Below, piece after piece: positions 150-47,440 of a DNA stretch of 53,595 nucleotides (positions are counted from its first letter, which is position 1; each line of letters begins with the position of its first letter). Both the position numbers and the translations under genes were made by a program. The stretch covers positions 1-53,595 of the forward strand of contig JAUYMR010000012.1 in NCBI GenBank assembly GCA_030698695.1, given 5' to 3'. Source of the stretch: a bacterium (GTDB taxonomy: Bacteria > Patescibacteriota > Minisyncoccia > UBA6257 > WO2-44-18). The notes under the pieces were generated by a model. It saw only the letters and a program-made list of their open reading frames with translations, did not search any database and was not told where the DNA came from.

Positions 150-584
150 TTATTGTTTAGTTTTAGATTCCTCCAACTGTTTAAAAACCGTCCCCAATAC
201 GCCATTGATGAATTTGCCAGAATTTGGACCACCATAGTTTTTGGCTATTTCAATAGCTTCATTAATGGCTACTTTGGGCGGAACTTCATCGGGATTGGCA
301 TATAATAATTCATATAAGCCGATACGCAAAGCATTTCGGTCAATAACGGCAATTTGTTCCAATGGCCATTCGGGAGCGGCTTTGCTGATAATATTGTTAA
401 TTTCATCCAAGTGTTCAATAACGCCCTTAACTAAACGCCAAACAAATTCCGGTTCGTCAATCCCCGGAGCGTATTCATTAAGATTGCGTTCCACGATCTG
501 AGTCAGATCATGCTTCATTTTATAAAAATCCCATTCATATAGGGATTGCAACACTACTGAGCGAGCGAGTTGACGAGTTGCCAT
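150..584 (-). CDS. nusB: Transcription antitermination factor NusB
   Basis: 144-aa ORF. N-terminal [14 protein letters not shown] and C-terminal FINGVLG motifs are typical of NusB. Confidence 0.9.
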
Positions 585-41662: not shown

Positions 41663-43306
41663 ATGAAATGGCGCGTTTTTTTATTAACTGGCGGAATATT
41701 TTTGGCATACAGCGCTTTAATTTTTAATCTTTCTAAACTACAACTAGAACAAGGCGGTTACTATTCCGCTAAAGCAGAATCCCAATATAGATCATCGGGT
41801 TTTTTGCGGGCTCAAAGGGGTAATATTTATTTTGTGGATAAAAACGACAATCTTATTCCGGCCGCTATCAATAAAAAATATCCGACAATATTTGCCGTTC
41901 CTGAGGAAATAGAGAATAAAGACGCGGTCAGCCAAACGCTAGCCTCAATATTGACCTTAGACGAACAGACTCTGCGCAATCAATTGAATAAGCCGGGCGA
42001 TCTTTACGAATTATTGATTACAAAAGCGGACAAAGAACAAGTTGAAAAGATTTTAGCTGCGGATCTGACAGGTGTTTATATTGATAGCCAAGAATTCAGA
42101 TTCTATCCATTTAATGAATTGGCGGCTCATGTTTTGGGTTTCGTTGGCGTAGACGAACAAGAGGAGGTGGCTGGCGGGCGTTATGGCATAGAACTTTATT
42201 TTAATGATTTATTAAGTGGTCGGCCCGGTAAATTGGACGCATCTGGACAGGGCAACAAAACCATAGAGCCCGTCGATGGCGAAGATGTCGTCCTGACTAT
42301 TGATAGAAACATACAAGCCAGAGCAGAGGAGATATTGGATAAATTGATAAAAGATTATCGTGCCGTTGCCGGAACCGTTATAGTGGAAGATCCCAAAACG
42401 GGAAAGATTTTAGCGATGGGTAATTATCCTACTTTTGACCCCAATAATTATTCGGAATATCCATTAAAATCATTTTTAAATCCAGCAGTACAGGCCGTTT
42501 ATGAACCGGGCTCTATATTTAAAGTTATGACGATGGCGGCCGGTATTGACAGTGGACGTCTCAAACCTAGCGATAAATATTATGATAGCGGCTCTGTTAC
42601 TTTTAACGGTAGCACTATTAAAAATTGGGATTTGAAGGCGCATGGCTGGGTTACTATGACAGAAGTTATTGAACAGTCTATAAATACCGGCGCGGTGTTC
42701 GCTCAGCGTCAGACTGGCGAGGGGATTTTTTACGATTATTTAGTAGCTCTGGGATTTAAAGAGCCTACGGGGATTAATTTGCCGGGAGAGTTAAGGGGTA
42801 GTTTGGTCAATCTTGAAACGGATGTCAGAGACATTAATTTTGCTACGGCGTCTTTTGGGCAGGGAGTGTCCGTAACGCCGATAGAATTAATTGCGGCCGT
42901 GTCAGCTATAGCCAATGATGGCGTTATGATGAAGCCGACTATAAATAACAACGAAGATCCGGAAGTTATAAGACAGACGCTGTCTCCAGAGGCGGCTAAT
43001 CAAGTTACGGCCATGATGGCTTCAGCTGTGCGCAAAGCGCAAGTCGCGCAAATACCCAATTATGAAATTGCCGGTAAAACTGGCACGGCTCAAGTGCCGA
43101 ATTTTGGTAAGGGCGGCTACACGGACGAGGTTATAGATACTTATGCCGGTTTTGCTCCGGCTACCAACCCCAGATTTGTTATTCTTATAAAAATTGATAA
43201 ACCATACGGGGCGCCACACGCGGCTTTAACAGTTGTGCCCGCTTTCCGAGAATTGGCAGAATTTATATTAAACTATTACAATGTTAGGCCAGATAGTTTT
43301 GAATAA
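41663..43306 (+). CDS. ftsI: Penicillin-binding protein 2 / FtsI-type transpeptidase
   Basis: N-terminal TM, PBP dimerisation region, and motifs SIFK (SxxK), SIN (SxN) and KTGT. Confidence 0.9.
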   Translation: MKWRVFLLTGGIFLAYSALIFNLSKLQLEQGGYYSAKAESQYRSSGFLRAQRGNIYFVDKNDNLIPAAINKKYPTIFAVPEEIENKDAVSQTLASILTLDEQTLRNQLNKPGDLYELLITKADKEQVEKILAADLTGVYIDSQEFRFYPFNELAAHVLGFVGVDEQEEVAGGRYGIELYFNDLLSGRPGKLDASGQGNKTIEPVDGEDVVLTIDRNIQARAEEILDKLIKDYRAVAGTVIVEDPKTGKILAMGNYPTFDPNNYSEYPLKSFLNPAVQAVYEPGSIFKVMTMAAGIDSGRLKPSDKYYDSGSVTFNGSTIKNWDLKAHGWVTMTEVIEQSINTGAVFAQRQTGEGIFYDYLVALGFKEPTGINLPGELRGSLVNLETDVRDINFATASFGQGVSVTPIELIAAVSAIANDGVMMKPTINNNEDPEVIRQTLSPEAANQVTAMMASAVRKAQVAQIPNYEIAGKTGTAQVPNFGKGGYTDEVIDTYAGFAPATNPRFVILIKIDKPYGAPHAALTVVPAFRELAEFILNYYNVRPDSFE

Positions 43307-43318
43307 ATATATAAAATA

Positions 43319-44554
43319 ATGAAAAACTACTTTAATAAACTTTTGAGATGGAAATTACGCGTTTTGGCGCGTTGGACTATCAAAAAATATCAGCCTGGGA
43401 TTATGGGGGTGACCGGCAGTGTCGGTAAAACTTCTGCCAAAGAAGCCATTTACGCCGTTTTGCGTAGCATACGTCGCGTTCGCGTTAGCGCCGGCAATTT
43501 CAATAATGAAATCGGTCTACCGCTAACCGTGCTTGGCGATTGGCAATATGTTGGCGGTTTTTGGTTTTGGGTTAGAGTGATTTTGGCATCGTGCTGGCGC
43601 CTTGTATATCCAGTCAAGTATCCTGAAATTTTGATTTTAGAATATGGAGCTGATAGACCGGGCGATATTAGATATTTATTAGATATAGCGCGACCTCAAA
43701 TAGGCATAGTTACAGCTGTGGGTGAAATTCCGGTCCATTTAGAGTTTTATAGCGGGCCCGAGGCCGTAGCCAAGGAAAAGGCAAGATTGGTTGAATCGTT
43801 GCCGGCCAACGGTTTTACGGTTTTAAATTTTGACGATCCGGTTGTTTTGGAAATGAAAGAGAAAACTCGCGCTCATGCTCTGACGTTTGGCTTCGGTGAT
43901 GGTGCGGAGGTTCGTATTACAAATTTTGAGAACCGTTGGAATAATGGTCGTCCCGAGGGCGTGGCATTTAAATTAGAATGTGCCGGTAGTTTTGTGCCGT
44001 TGAGGATTAATGGTTGTTTAGGAAAGCCTCAAGCTTATGCGGCGGCAGCCGCGGCATGCGTGGGCCTGGCTTTTGGTATGAATTTAGTGAGAATTGTAGA
44101 GGCATTACACTATTATAAATCACCGCCACATAGACTTAAGGTGATATCGGGCATTAAAAACAGTTTTATTATAGATGACACCTACAACGCTTCTTTACTA
44201 TCCATGCAGGGAGCGTTGGAGTCTGTTAGAGACGTTAAAAAGCGACGTAGAGTTGGCATTTTGGGCGATATGTTAGAGATCGGCAAGTATTCTATCCAAG
44301 CGCATGAAACGATTGGGCGTTTAGCTGGCAAGACATTGAATATTTTAATAACTATTGGTCCTCACGCGAAATTTATAGCCGCCGCGGCCAATAAGGTTGG
44401 TTTGGCTAAAAAGAATATATTCAGTTTTGATAGAGTTGAGGATGCTTTAGCAGAGGTAAACAAATTAGTAAGAAAAAACGACCTTATTTTGGTAAAAGCA
44501 TCTAGAGCCATTGGTTTGGGTAAAATAGTAGACAATATTAGACAGAGCCAATAG
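43319..44554 (+). CDS. murF: UDP-N-acetylmuramoyl-tripeptide--D-alanyl-D-alanine ligase
   Basis: Mur ligase P-loop GVTGSVGKTS, a DDTYNAS motif and dcw context. Confidence 0.85.
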   Translation: MKNYFNKLLRWKLRVLARWTIKKYQPGIMGVTGSVGKTSAKEAIYAVLRSIRRVRVSAGNFNNEIGLPLTVLGDWQYVGGFWFWVRVILASCWRLVYPVKYPEILILEYGADRPGDIRYLLDIARPQIGIVTAVGEIPVHLEFYSGPEAVAKEKARLVESLPANGFTVLNFDDPVVLEMKEKTRAHALTFGFGDGAEVRITNFENRWNNGRPEGVAFKLECAGSFVPLRINGCLGKPQAYAAAAAACVGLAFGMNLVRIVEALHYYKSPPHRLKVISGIKNSFIIDDTYNASLLSMQGALESVRDVKKRRRVGILGDMLEIGKYSIQAHETIGRLAGKTLNILITIGPHAKFIAAAANKVGLAKKNIFSFDRVEDALAEVNKLVRKNDLILVKASRAIGLGKIVDNIRQSQ

Positions 44555-44575
44555 AACTTCTTATAATATAAACGA

Positions 44576-44650
44576 GCTCCTATCGTCTAGTCCGGCCTAG
44601 GACGTCGCGTTCTCATCGCGAAAACTCGGGTTCGAATCCCGATGGGAGCA
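44576..44650 (+). tRNA. tRNA-Glu (anticodon CTC)
   Basis: GCTCCTA-TC-GTC-TAGTCCGGCCTAG-GAC-G-TCGCG-TTCTCAT-CGCGA-AAAC-TCGGG-TTCGAAT-CCCGA-TGGGAGC-A. CCA is not encoded. Confidence 0.9.
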
Positions 44651-44654
44651 CTAC

Positions 44655-44682
44655 TTGACAGATATTCTATATATGCTATAAT
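44655..44682 (+). promoter_or_regulatory. Consensus sigma70-type promoter immediately after tRNA-Glu
   Basis: TTGACA-16 nt-TATAAT. Confidence 0.6.
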
Positions 44683-44748
44683 GCAACGACAACCAGTACA
44701 TTGTTAGATGGTTTTGTTTTTGAGGCCACTTTCACGAAAGGAAAGATC

Positions 44749-45039
44749 ATGGCCGACGCGCGCAAGAAGGGTGGCGAAGGGGTCGTCAAGGTCGCCAAGG
44801 GCGGGAGCCAGAAGAAGAAGTCTCTCCCGCGCCGTACGGGGAAGAGGAATCGCAACGGCTACGCCAGCCGCCAGGTGACGCGTACGGAGATGAACAAGTG
44901 GCGGCGGGTTATCCGCTCCAACTCGCCCGAGGATGCCCGCGGGTGGTCCGAGAGACACGGCTACATGTCCGACCTCCGCCAGCTGGAGGAGACGAACACC
45001 AAGATGGCGGCCAAGGCCCGCAAGGCCGTCGCCACCTAG
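44749..45039 (+). CDS. Small highly basic GC-rich hypothetical protein (96 aa)
   Basis: AAAGGAAAG SD-like element before the ATG and strong G/C third-position bias. About 66% GC by hand count against about 40% background. Confidence 0.65.
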   Translation: MADARKKGGEGVVKVAKGGSQKKKSLPRRTGKRNRNGYASRQVTRTEMNKWRRVIRSNSPEDARGWSERHGYMSDLRQLEETNTKMAAKARKAVAT

Positions 45040-45045
45040 TCGTAC

Positions 45046-45080
45046 GCCCCCGATCTCACGATCGGGGGCATTTTTATTTT
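45046..45080 (+). terminator. Rho-independent terminator
   Basis: GCCCCCGATctcacgATCGGGGGC followed by a T-rich tract. Confidence 0.85.
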
Positions 45081-45150
45081 TCTTGACTCAGAACAATATA
45101 TGTGATATACTTGCTTTAGGTAATAAATGCCCCGTGAGGGGCTGAATTTA

Positions 45151-45714
45151 ATGGGTAAACCAAAAACATCAATTAAGGAAGTTATAAAAATTCTCAATGC
45201 TGGAGGCGTAGTTATTTTTCCTACGGAAACAGTTTATGGCTTGATTTGTGACGCCACCAATCCGGCAGCTCTTTTGAAGATTTATCAAATAAAAAATCGC
45301 GAATTAGGCAAGTCATTTCCCTTGCTGGTTAAAGATTTTAAAATGTTGGCCGATTATGCCATTTTCGGAGTTGATCAAAAAAAGATAATGAAATCGGTCA
45401 AAAAACCGACTAATTTTATATTAAAAGCCAAAAATTTATCGCCGCTAGTTATGCAGAAACATACCGCGGCTTTTAGAATTTCAACTCATTCCTGGGTTAA
45501 GCGGTTATTTCGTGATTTTGACAGACCGTTGGTGGCTACTAGCGCTAATTTGAGCGGTAAAAAACCAATCAGCGATCCGCGTGATTATTTGACTGCTTTT
45601 GGAGATAGGAGCAAATTGATTGAGGCGATTGTGTCCAATGGCATAAATCGTAAGACGCGGGCATCGGCTATTATTGATATAACTCGCAAACATCATAAAA
45701 TTATAAGAAGATAG
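45151..45714 (+). CDS. tsaC: L-threonylcarbamoyladenylate synthase (TsaC/YrdC)
   Basis: GGVVIFPTETVYGL and ATSANLSGK motifs. An alternative start lies at 45127. Confidence 0.85.
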   Translation: MGKPKTSIKEVIKILNAGGVVIFPTETVYGLICDATNPAALLKIYQIKNRELGKSFPLLVKDFKMLADYAIFGVDQKKIMKSVKKPTNFILKAKNLSPLVMQKHTAAFRISTHSWVKRLFRDFDRPLVATSANLSGKKPISDPRDYLTAFGDRSKLIEAIVSNGINRKTRASAIIDITRKHHKIIRR

Positions 45715-45721
45715 TCTTATT

Positions 45722-46867
45722 ATGAATTTTAGGATTCTTAAAAAAGCCAAGCGTGGCTATGGTCGGCTGGGCGTTATTGAAACTGATCATGGCGTTATTC
45801 ATACGCCATCTTTTGTTCCTGTGGGCACTCAAGCAACCGTTAAGGGATTAACCGTTGATCAATTGAGATCTTTGGGGACGGAATCGGTTCTTTGCAATAC
45901 TTATCATCTATATTTGCGACCGGGTGATAAGACGGTTAAAAAAATGGGTGGGTTGCACAAATTTATGAATTGGGATCGACCCATTTGGACGGATAGCGGG
46001 GGATTTCAAGCATTCAGCCTGGGTGCCGCTATTGAGCATGGCGTGGGGAAAATAGCCAGCATCTTTCCTGGAAGAAATCAAAAAGATGTGGGCGAGAAAG
46101 AGCGCGTGATTAAAGATGGATTAACGCGTATCACCGAAGATGGCGTTGAATTCCGCTCTCATTTGGATGGCTCTAAGCACCTTTTTACGCCAGAGAAGTC
46201 TATGGAGATTCAAGAAAATCTGGGTGCCGATATAATTTTTGCTTTTGATGAATGCACCTCCCCGCTACATGATTATCAATATACTAAAAAATCCATGGAA
46301 CGCACTCACAGATGGGCTAAGCGTTCTTTGGTCGCGCATAAACAGAAAGAGAAAAAACAATCCCTATTCGGCATTGTTCAGGGCGGCGCCTATAAAGATT
46401 TACGCGAGATCAGCGCTCAGTTTATCGGTAGTTTATCTTTCCCGGGTTTTGGCATCGGCGGCTCATTGGGTAAATCTAAAAAAGATATGTATAAAGTTTT
46501 GGAGTGGACTATGCCGCATTTGCCGGAAGATAAGCCCAGACATTTATTGGGCATAGGTTCTCCGGAAGATATTTATGAATGTGTTAAGAGGGGGGTGGAT
46601 ACCTTTGATTGTGTTTTGCCCACTAGATTGGGCAGAAACGGCAATGCTTTATTGTCCGGAGAGAATTTGAATATTAAATCAGGTCGCTATCTAAAAGATA
46701 AAAAGCCAATTGATAAAAAATGCAAATGCTATACTTGTCAGAATCATACGCGCGCCTACGTTAGTCATCTGTTTAGAGCCAATGAAATGCTGGGACCAAT
46801 TTTGACTACCATACACAATTTATTTTTTATGGAAGAATTAATGAAGGGTATTAGAAAAAGCATCTGA
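45722..46867 (+). CDS. tgt: tRNA-guanine transglycosylase
   Basis: TPSFVPVGT, TDSGGFQ, GIVQGG and the zinc motif CxC..C..H (CKCYTCQNHTRAYVSHL). Confidence 0.9.
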   Translation: MNFRILKKAKRGYGRLGVIETDHGVIHTPSFVPVGTQATVKGLTVDQLRSLGTESVLCNTYHLYLRPGDKTVKKMGGLHKFMNWDRPIWTDSGGFQAFSLGAAIEHGVGKIASIFPGRNQKDVGEKERVIKDGLTRITEDGVEFRSHLDGSKHLFTPEKSMEIQENLGADIIFAFDECTSPLHDYQYTKKSMERTHRWAKRSLVAHKQKEKKQSLFGIVQGGAYKDLREISAQFIGSLSFPGFGIGGSLGKSKKDMYKVLEWTMPHLPEDKPRHLLGIGSPEDIYECVKRGVDTFDCVLPTRLGRNGNALLSGENLNIKSGRYLKDKKPIDKKCKCYTCQNHTRAYVSHLFRANEMLGPILTTIHNLFFMEELMKGIRKSI

Positions 46868-46979: not shown

Positions 46980-47014
46980 TAAAACCCCCCGAAGACAATG
47001 GTGTCTTCGGGGGT
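46980..47014 (-). terminator. Rho-independent terminator of the 53-aa ORF
   Basis: Minus strand: CCCCCGAAGACaccattGTCTTCGGGGG followed by TTTT. Confidence 0.8.
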
Positions 47015-47039
47015 GCGCATGATATCCATCGCGGGCGGA

Positions 47040-47201
47040 CTAATTGCTCTTGATGGATTTTTCTCTGATGTCACAACCGACATCGGCGAGGCGGTCGTGG
47101 TGGGGGCATTTGTCGGGACGGCCATCCCGGGTTTCCATACACTCACCAATGCGTCCGTGGGCCATGCAGACCCACTGGCGGATTTCGGGCTTGGAGTCCA
47201 T
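47040..47201 (-). CDS. Small Cys/His-rich GC-rich hypothetical protein (53 aa)
   Basis: Not in the ORF track. Perfect SD AAGGAGG 6 nt before the ATG. Hand translation gives MDSKPEIRQWVCMAHGRIGECMETRDGRPDKCPHHDRLADVGCDIREKSIKSN; about 57% GC by hand count. Confidence 0.6.
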   Translation of the reverse strand: MDSKPEIRQWVCMAHGRIGECMETRDGRPDKCPHHDRLADVGCDIREKSIKSN

Positions 47202-47282
47202 AACAGACCTCCTTACAAAAAGTGCTAATCGCCGAATCCGGGCGATACGGTGCCCGTCCTTGGGCGATTATTTCCTAATTAA

Positions 47283-47312
47283 AGTATAGCACATAACGCC
47301 ATAACCTGTCAA
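47283..47312 (-). promoter_or_regulatory. Promoter for the 53-aa ORF cassette
   Basis: Minus strand TTGACA-18 nt-TATACT, predicting a GC-rich structured leader of about 75 nt. Confidence 0.5.
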
Positions 47313-47334
47313 TGACGTATTATCAAGCCGGAAA

Positions 47335-47364
47335 ACAAAAAAGAGCAAAATTGCTCTTTTTTGT
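47335..47364. terminator. Bidirectional hairpin terminator downstream of tRNA-Phe
   Basis: ACAAAAAAGAGCAA/TTGCTCTTTTTTGT. Confidence 0.75.
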
Positions 47365-47368
47365 TGTG

Positions 47369-47440
47369 TGCCGCGGGGGTGAATCGAACACCCGACACGA
47401 CGCTCTTCAGGCGTCTGCTCTACCACTGAGCTACCGCGGC
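47369..47440 (-). tRNA. tRNA-Phe (anticodon GAA)
   Basis: GCCGCGG-TA-GCTC-AGTGGTA-GAGC-A-GACGC-CTGAAGA-GCGTC-GTGTC-GGGTG-TTCGATT-CACCC-CCGCGGC-A. Confidence 0.9.

Follow-up and report, generated by a model that had tools for sequence, protein, structure and literature searches.

This report concerns a GC-rich gene cassette on contig JAUYMR010000012.1 (assembly GCA_030698695.1), and the window is the whole stretch of DNA that was analysed, 53,595 nt in length. The cassette (44655..45080) is a unit of ~430 nt in which a promoter, a leader with a Shine-Dalgarno (SD) sequence, a single open reading frame (ORF) and a terminator follow one another on the 3' side of a transfer RNA (tRNA) gene, tRNA-Glu(CTC). 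The features of the locus are the following:

44576..44651, plus strand: tRNA-Glu(CTC), detected by ARAGORN and Rfam; left boundary and anchor of the insertion site, outside the putatively foreign DNA.
44655..44682, plus strand: predicted promoter TTGACA-16-TATAAT, matching the sigma-70 consensus at 12/12 positions and assigned by sequence match alone.
44683..44748, plus strand: AT-rich 5' leader with the SD-like AAAGGAAAG, read from the sequence.
44749..45039, plus strand: coding sequence of a 96-aa basic helical protein (ORF96), called from the periodicity of GC at third codon positions (GC3) and from homology.
45046..45080, plus strand: predicted intrinsic terminator, an inverted repeat with a 10-bp stem (8 G-C pairs), a 4-nt loop and a T-rich tail.
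45082..45111, plus strand: right boundary, a second promoter-like site TTGACT-17-TATACT (10/12 match) ahead of yrdC.

The cassette promoter begins 4 nt past the end of tRNA-Glu and carries a TG before the -10 hexamer, at the end of its 16-nt spacer. It was the sole 12/12 match to the sigma-70 consensus on both strands of the window, where four other sites reached 11/12. The leader of ~60 nt has 38% GC, and its SD-like sequence (44738-44746) lies 3-11 nt before the ATG at 44749. The terminator, GCCCCCGATC-tcac-GATCGGGGGC and then ATTTTTATTTTT, begins 6 nt past the TAG. All the elements named in the preliminary description of this locus (tRNA, promoter, leader, SD, ORF and terminator) were found where it had placed them, and its count of 193 G+C in 291 nt was exact. 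The site ahead of yrdC is presumably the native yrdC promoter. The hexamer CTTGAC occurs at both edges of the cassette (44654 and 45082), each copy belonging to a -35 box; it is conceivable that the repeat served as insertion microhomology between the two boxes, which we leave at the level of inference because both copies are -35 boxes.

ORF96 runs from the ATG at 44749 to the TAG at 45039 (291 nt, 96 aa; 66.3% GC), with GC of 0.567, 0.515 and 0.907 at codon positions 1, 2 and 3, and all 12 of its lysines are encoded by AAG. The deduced protein has a pI (isoelectric point) of 11.4. The jump in composition described earlier was borne out by windowed analysis: the window has 40.4% GC, the standard deviation (sd) of 300-nt windows is 0.044, and the cassette island lies ~6 sd out as the unique maximum. 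The GC3 of the neighbouring murF, penicillin-binding protein (PBP) gene, yrdC and tgt is 0.36-0.40, and the flanking genes have 38-43% GC. Among all ORFs of at least 40 aa in the window ORF96 has the highest GC3, followed by one at 0.70, and none of the native genes exceeds 0.63. A 96-codon open frame is not significant at 66% GC, and three other frames are open here for 56-84 codons; since a long open frame is uninformative in such DNA, the coding call rests on GC3 periodicity and homology. ORF96 is protein-coding and a member of a real family. The gene caller offered a 112-aa product from a TTG at 44701, a start that appears less likely than the ATG at 44749, because it is at the ATG that the rise in GC, the SD and the alignment of the family begin.

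The gene is missing from related loci. MurF places the contig in the Patescibacteria: its closest matches came from a metagenome-assembled genome (MAG) labelled 'Patescibacteria group bacterium' (66%) and from Candidatus Harrisonbacteria MAGs (63-64%), and no homologue of ORF96 was present in any of 76 related Patescibacteria murF loci. This absence, together with the composition, supports the earlier view that the DNA was acquired. The accompanying statement that the cassette breaks the division and cell wall (dcw) cluster has to be withdrawn: tRNA-Glu(CTC) lies within 700 nt after murF in 32 of the 76 loci, and in 22 of the 23 whose MurF is at least 47% identical, so the break after murF is ancestral and not due to the cassette. 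Each of the close relatives examined has a different set of genes after tRNA-Glu, as in the following three loci:

L013, 6358-8134: a 237-aa ORF and a CPBP-type membrane protein, then tgt.
L015, 6314-7372: a 335-aa minus-strand gene, then tgt.
L012, 4172-4777: a CPBP-type protein.

The 3' flank of tRNA-Glu is a variable gene-content hotspot in this Parcubacteria clade. The proposed search for homologues and their contexts among related genomes had two outcomes, no homologue in the 76 loci and a variable stretch after tRNA-Glu. The tRNA-Glu of the window aligned best with that of the closest relatives (L012 and L013) and not with phage tRNA-Glu, and it is of the native type, not a mosaic. The flanking genes (tRNA-Glu, murF, yrdC with its Sua5_yciO_yrdC match, tgt, the PCD gene and the RNR gene) are of native composition, and no phage gene was seen among them.

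Homologues of ORF96 were recovered from metagenomes. A word-indexed search of 5.8 billion proteins returned ORF96 itself as the sole match. Using phmmer against 1.84 billion cluster representatives, five proteins of 68-87 aa were obtained (E 1.5e-5 to 7e-4, 38-44% identity), and the profile made from them gathered 53 proteins (53-109 aa), every one of which comes from a metagenome and lacks a Pfam domain. A leave-one-out family profile matched residues 14-85 of ORF96 with 55.9 bits (E 3.3e-10, Z=1.8e9). The preliminary description had recognised no family for the protein; the homologue search and the structure prediction that it proposed gave an unnamed metagenomic family of ~50 members, to which ORF96 belongs, and an AlphaFold2 (AF2) helical model without significant Foldseek match.

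In the family alignment a low-complexity basic N-terminus is followed by the core KGLPKRTGKR, ~15 residues and NKLRRILRRNG..AA..WA..HG. Five of the six near-invariant residues (P27, R29, K50, N58, G59 and A63) are kept in ORF96, in which G59 is replaced by Ser (NS for NG). The AF2 model on the family alignment has a pLDDT (predicted local distance difference test) of 79.9, with helices at 38-57, 60-70, 73-80 and 85-95; the N-terminal ~30 residues are of low confidence (block means 51-65) and the C-terminal part is confidently helical. The likeliest role of the product is nucleic-acid binding, through a disordered, basic (Lys/Arg-rich) tail at the N-terminus and a C-terminal domain of four helices.

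Searches of Pfam, PHROGs, NCBIfam and PADLOC with ORF96 and 46 family members gave insignificant singletons only, and the PADLOC defence models showed no recurrent match across the 46 members (singletons with E at least 0.006). Foldseek of the AF2 model against PDB and BFVD gave no match below E 1.6, those listed being armadillo repeats and bS20 with a template modelling (TM) score of ~0.3. The best PDB profile match aligned the 20-residue NKlrRILrsNGL with GNKILRILKSNGL of eukaryotic uS15 at an insignificant E of 0.23. The Pfam model Ribosomal_S13_N matched none of the 46 members, the NCBIfam L19e model matched one at an insignificant E of 0.086, and one family member carries the JGI label 'ribosomal protein L19E'; resemblances of these kinds are leads and not evidence. 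Membership in the uS15 N-domain or eL19 families is not supported, all sequence and fold similarities being insignificant. The family was not found in the cultured phages of INPHARED (four members used as queries) nor in the plasmids of PLSDB. An unannotated family of ~50 small basic proteins has thereby been uncovered, absent from Pfam, PHROGs, NCBIfam, PADLOC and cultured phages.

The contigs of 11 family members were read, and on 10 of them, of 55-62% GC, the GC of the family gene roughly matches its surroundings. The contents of the 11 contigs are:

L006 (112-kb contig): after the family gene, an HNH endonuclease, a head-maturation protease and an HK97-type major capsid protein.
L007: phage lysozyme and Thy1.
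L003 and L008: DUF6197 and Band_7 genes.
L009: a DUF5906 primase-helicase-type gene.
L011: an Acb2/Tad1-hairpin protein, NADAR and HNH.
L004 (176-kb contig): dCMP deaminase and DNA methyltransferase.
L095: an IMG/VR viral genome of 74 kb.
L092 and L094: small ORFs only, without phage marker.
L093, 973-1218: family gene P0012 in a cellular chromosome, in the order holA, rpsT (minus strand), family gene, uvrB (minus strand), ruvA and a short murE.

The family occurs mainly on phage contigs whose GC is moderately high to high. The L093 locus has 54% GC and P0012 itself 61%, with its own SD and intrinsic terminator, and this locus shares no genes with the fetched loci of the candidate phyla radiation (CPR), the group to which the bacterium of the window belongs. 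Several of the other homologues are preceded by intergenic gaps of 77-700 nt. The high-GC donor suggested earlier gains support as a phage or another high-GC source, the relatives lying on contigs of 54-62% GC that mostly bear phage genes; the actinobacterial donor suggested with it is pure speculation, and the capsid protein beside the L006 homologue has its nearest counterparts in Burkholderia and Rhodobacter phages (best cultured matches in Burkholderia, Rhodobacter and Marinobacter phages, 34-42% identity).

Two small-ORF patterns were noted at these loci. On L094 (1.4-kb contig), hand translation gave an apparent small zinc-ribbon-like protein of ~48 aa (CPRCG...CAKCH; 430-582, minus strand) and another apparent promoter-led small ORF, which suggests that the contig is a string of independent small-gene units. 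In four phage loci, mini-ORFs of 4-5 codons with a Met-Thr start occur 26-38 nt upstream of the family ATG: MTTS* (L004:4975-4989), MTQSA* (L006:4972-4989), MTLCK* (L007:4963-4980) and MTILS* (L011:4968-4985). Each has a G-rich SD-like stretch (AGGAGGTG, AGGAGGT or GGGGGA), and the copy in the window has no mini-ORF. Such a mini-ORF may be a leader peptide or a translational-coupling device.

The closest homologue, P0002, shares a promoter motif with ORF96. P0002 lies on L094 (57% GC) and has TTGACAGATTTTCT-...-TATGAT 101 nt upstream of its ATG; the counterpart in the window is TTGACAGATATTCT-...-TATAAT, 94 nt upstream of the ATG at 44749, with a 16-nt spacer in both. The two promoters share 13/14 nt (the -35 hexamer and the next 8 nt), equal spacers and similar distances to the ATG. 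A single copy of the 14-mer TTGACAGATNTTCT was present in the window and a single copy in 95 fetched loci (~0.8 Mb; L094:1029), upstream of ORF96 and P0002 only, and none of the CPR relatives has it after tRNA-Glu. Because the shared motif occurs nowhere else in the window or the 95 loci, the cassette promoter probably is not native and arrived with the gene, and the signals once described as native-looking most likely came in the same way.

In three phage loci the family gene lies inside dense tRNA arrays, with 16 (L004), 13 (L006) and 24 (L011) tRNA genes per 10 kb. The L004 copy begins 121 nt past tRNA-Lys and stops 4 nt short of tRNA-Leu, and the L006 copy begins 129 nt past tRNA-Ser; ORF96 begins 97 nt past tRNA-Glu. 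The association is partial, since no tRNA lies within 1-5 kb at seven further homologue loci, and L006 and L011 are probably related phages and not independent cases because they share leader sequence. HNH endonuclease genes are also scattered through the arrays of L006 and L011. The tRNA neighbourhood is the sole functional hint available, and a link of the family to tRNA or translation is suggested only by its recurrence; the pattern may reflect only plastic regions that collect small accessory genes. Phage tRNA arrays have been discussed as anti-defence or translation-support modules (e.g. PMC12803027, PMC13096335). One could imagine the family as a tRNA- or ribosome-binding factor associated with phage tRNA arrays, and the cassette as captured by the CPR bacterium through tRNA-anchored recombination from a phage of its high-GC host or neighbour; we regard this as a long shot. 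If it were true, the cassette would be a translation or anti-defence factor that the bacterium has domesticated, and would at the same time trace, at the molecular level, the partners of an episymbiont.

Taken together, the cassette is probably a moron-like single-gene unit that was acquired recently, from a high-GC phage or the host of such a phage, and has not been ameliorated since. A self-contained transcription unit would have been acquired horizontally and inserted immediately behind the native tRNA-Glu(CTC) in a CPR bacterium of the Parcubacteria/Paceibacterota type, the landing site being a variable intergenic hotspot with no prophage around. The transfer would be recent because the synonymous sites are unameliorated (GC3 of 0.91 in ORF96 and 0.38 in host genes); the concept of amelioration is reportedly that of Lawrence and Ochman. 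From the way GC3 relates to genome GC, a value of 0.9 points to a donor with roughly 65% GC or more, and the donor would accordingly be a phage of a high-GC bacterium, or that bacterium. The promoter would have been carried in together with the gene, and ORF96 would be expressed from its own predicted promoter and terminated at its own hairpin.

Several results weigh against this interpretation. No donor was found among the sequences searched: a close copy of ORF96 was absent from IMG/VR, the JGI metagenomes (searched with the family alignment or the single protein), INPHARED and PLSDB, identity to the nearest homologue is only ~40%, and the homologue loci all stay below 66% GC. The position of P0012 in a chromosome between rpsT and uvrB makes a bacterial rather than a phage donor possible. 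The promoter likeness is limited to 13/14 nt, the rest of the leader being weakly alike. A direct repeat of the tRNA 3' end, which the preliminary description had proposed to look for as an attachment (att) site, was not found in 44000..45800 (repeat search, seed 7), and no integrase or recombinase is present, the 96-aa gene being the only ORF in the foreign block. Integrase, att repeat and mosaic tRNA, any of which could have pointed to a mechanism of insertion, are all lacking. Finally, contigs of an independent assembly break inside tRNA-Glu (44598) and restart inside ORF96 (44930), which leaves the left junction without a second witness; the break inside ORF96 may stem from lower coverage of GC-rich DNA, from strain variation or from k-mers common to another organism.

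Other explanations were weighed against a recent acquisition. ORF96 could be an old gene native to the CPR genome, encoding a small basic protein that is abundant and associated with the nucleoid or the ribosome, and its GC-rich codons could be kept by selection on expression or messenger RNA structure. The cassette promoter, by consensus match the strongest in the window, would suit such a gene, as would the chromosomal homologue P0012, divergent from rpsT and equipped with its own SD and terminator, and the weak resemblances to the eukaryotic/archaeal uS15 N-domain (E 0.23) and to L19e (the JGI name; NCBIfam E 0.086). However, native GC3 never exceeds 0.63, so the genome shows no expression-linked GC3 bias, the gene is missing from the 76 related loci, most homologues stand in phage contexts, and the ribosomal-protein similarities are insignificant. 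A native origin is accordingly unlikely.

It is similarly improbable that the cassette is the last remnant of a tRNA-targeted integrative element or prophage which has otherwise been deleted. The 3' end of a tRNA gene is a classical integration site, the cassette lies directly 3' of one, and its gene family is phage-borne. This explanation meets no integrase or mobile-element gene at the locus and no direct repeat of the tRNA 3' end; the yrdC and tgt flanks are of native composition, the foreign block has only ~430 nt with sharp edges at promoter and terminator, and a prophage of 66% GC would be unusual in a host of 40% GC.

An assembly chimera, in which a high-GC fragment of another organism was spliced into the CPR contig, had been named as an outcome that would undo the preliminary description, and we regard it as very unlikely. 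In its favour, the contigs from the independent Logan assembly of run SRR13727534, a run for which a literature search gave no paper, stop within the tRNA, a sequence shared between organisms, at 44598 and resume at 44930. One of them is identical to 42329..44598; the other, which speaks against a chimera, is 100% identical to 44930..46672 (1743 nt) and spans the GC-rich 3' third of ORF96, the terminator, the AT-rich yrdC and tgt, so that the right junction is reproduced (the left junction is not covered). An internal insert of 330 nt would moreover need two chimeric joins that by chance leave promoter, SD, ORF and terminator as an intact unit, the AT-rich promoter has a homologous counterpart upstream of P0002, and the flanks retain the murF-tRNA-Glu...tgt order of the relatives L013 and L015.

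That the island is a structured non-coding RNA with an incidental ORF can practically be set aside: GC-rich islands in AT-rich genomes are often RNA genes, this one lies between a strong promoter and a terminator, and several of its frames are open, as expected for GC-rich DNA, but with Rfam covariance models on the leader and cassette region the tRNA alone passed the gathering score and only noise appeared at E<=10 (best non-tRNA match 28.8 bits, gathering score 112), the folding z was ~-2 on both strands with the terminator hairpin included in both folded stretches, and the codon-position periodicity (0.57/0.52/0.91) and protein homology (E 3e-10) mark the DNA as coding.

Two further observations were made downstream. 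The yrdC/tsaC-like ORF has its first ATG (45127) in the hairpin region of GCCCCGTGAGGGGC (45129-45142), which scores as a terminator-like site on the minus strand. An alternative start is the second ATG at 45151 (MGKPKTS...), and the shortened form keeps the full-length Sua5_yciO_yrdC match; the second ATG may be the true start of yrdC. A second, mirror-image mini-cassette lies on the minus strand at 46982..47358 and adjoins tRNA-Phe (47440..47368, minus strand). Read along this strand, it comprises a hairpin with a T-run, TTGACA-18-TATACT (11/12, from 47312), a leader, the SD TAAGGAGG, ORF53 and a terminator. ORF53 (47201..47040) encodes a 53-aa Cys/His-rich protein (MDSKPEIRQWVCMAHGRIGECMETRDGRPDKCPHH...) with 57% GC and a GC3 of 0.70, the second-highest in the window, and its terminator is strong (CCCCCGAAGAC...GTCTTCGGGGGG-TTTT). 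The yrdC-tgt pair is bracketed in this way by two tRNA-adjacent, GC-rich, self-contained small-gene units. ORF53 had no Pfam match and no homologue, and no link to the loci of the ORF96 family was found.

If a recent acquisition is the right explanation, the locus is a clean, unameliorated record of how one gene, complete with promoter and terminator, crossed a gap of 25 GC points to enter a reduced CPR genome, and the 3' flank of tRNA-Glu is marked as a gene-exchange hotspot in Parcubacteria. A donor in the same sample, if found, would hint at an ecological partner of this uncultured CPR organism. The event is instructive and not an extraordinary case of horizontal gene transfer, and current understanding is not overturned by it.

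The cassette was compared with four known systems. Small basic ribosomal proteins (uS15 N-domain, eL19, bS20) resemble ORF96 in size, extreme basicity and helical fold, but the motif, L19e and Foldseek similarities of ORF96 and its family are all insignificant, and on present evidence it is not a member. With the small ORFs of phage tRNA arrays the family has a more direct relation, three homologues sitting between tRNA genes of arrays with 13-24 members and ORF96 lying at a similar distance from its tRNA, although the cassette adjoins a single chromosomal tRNA and not an array. The recurrence of family members inside such arrays, a region with largely uncharacterised small ORFs, may deserve follow-up. 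Like tRNA-associated genomic islands, the cassette is of foreign origin, adjoins the 3' end of a tRNA gene and occupies a stretch that varies between relatives; it differs from them in having neither integrase nor att direct repeats and in consisting of ~430 nt with one gene. Phage morons of the HK97/HK022 type possess their own promoter and terminator and a GC content unlike that of the surrounding genes (PMC3594210). The cassette likewise has a single gene, its own sigma-70 promoter by sequence match, a factor-independent terminator, a deviant GC that implies horizontal transfer, and a family carried by phages. Morons are inserted between phage or prophage genes, whereas the cassette lies in a CPR chromosome between tRNA-Glu and yrdC; it is moron-like in its architecture and located outside any phage genome. 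A recent acquisition would show that cellular chromosomes can receive moron-like units at sites outside prophages.

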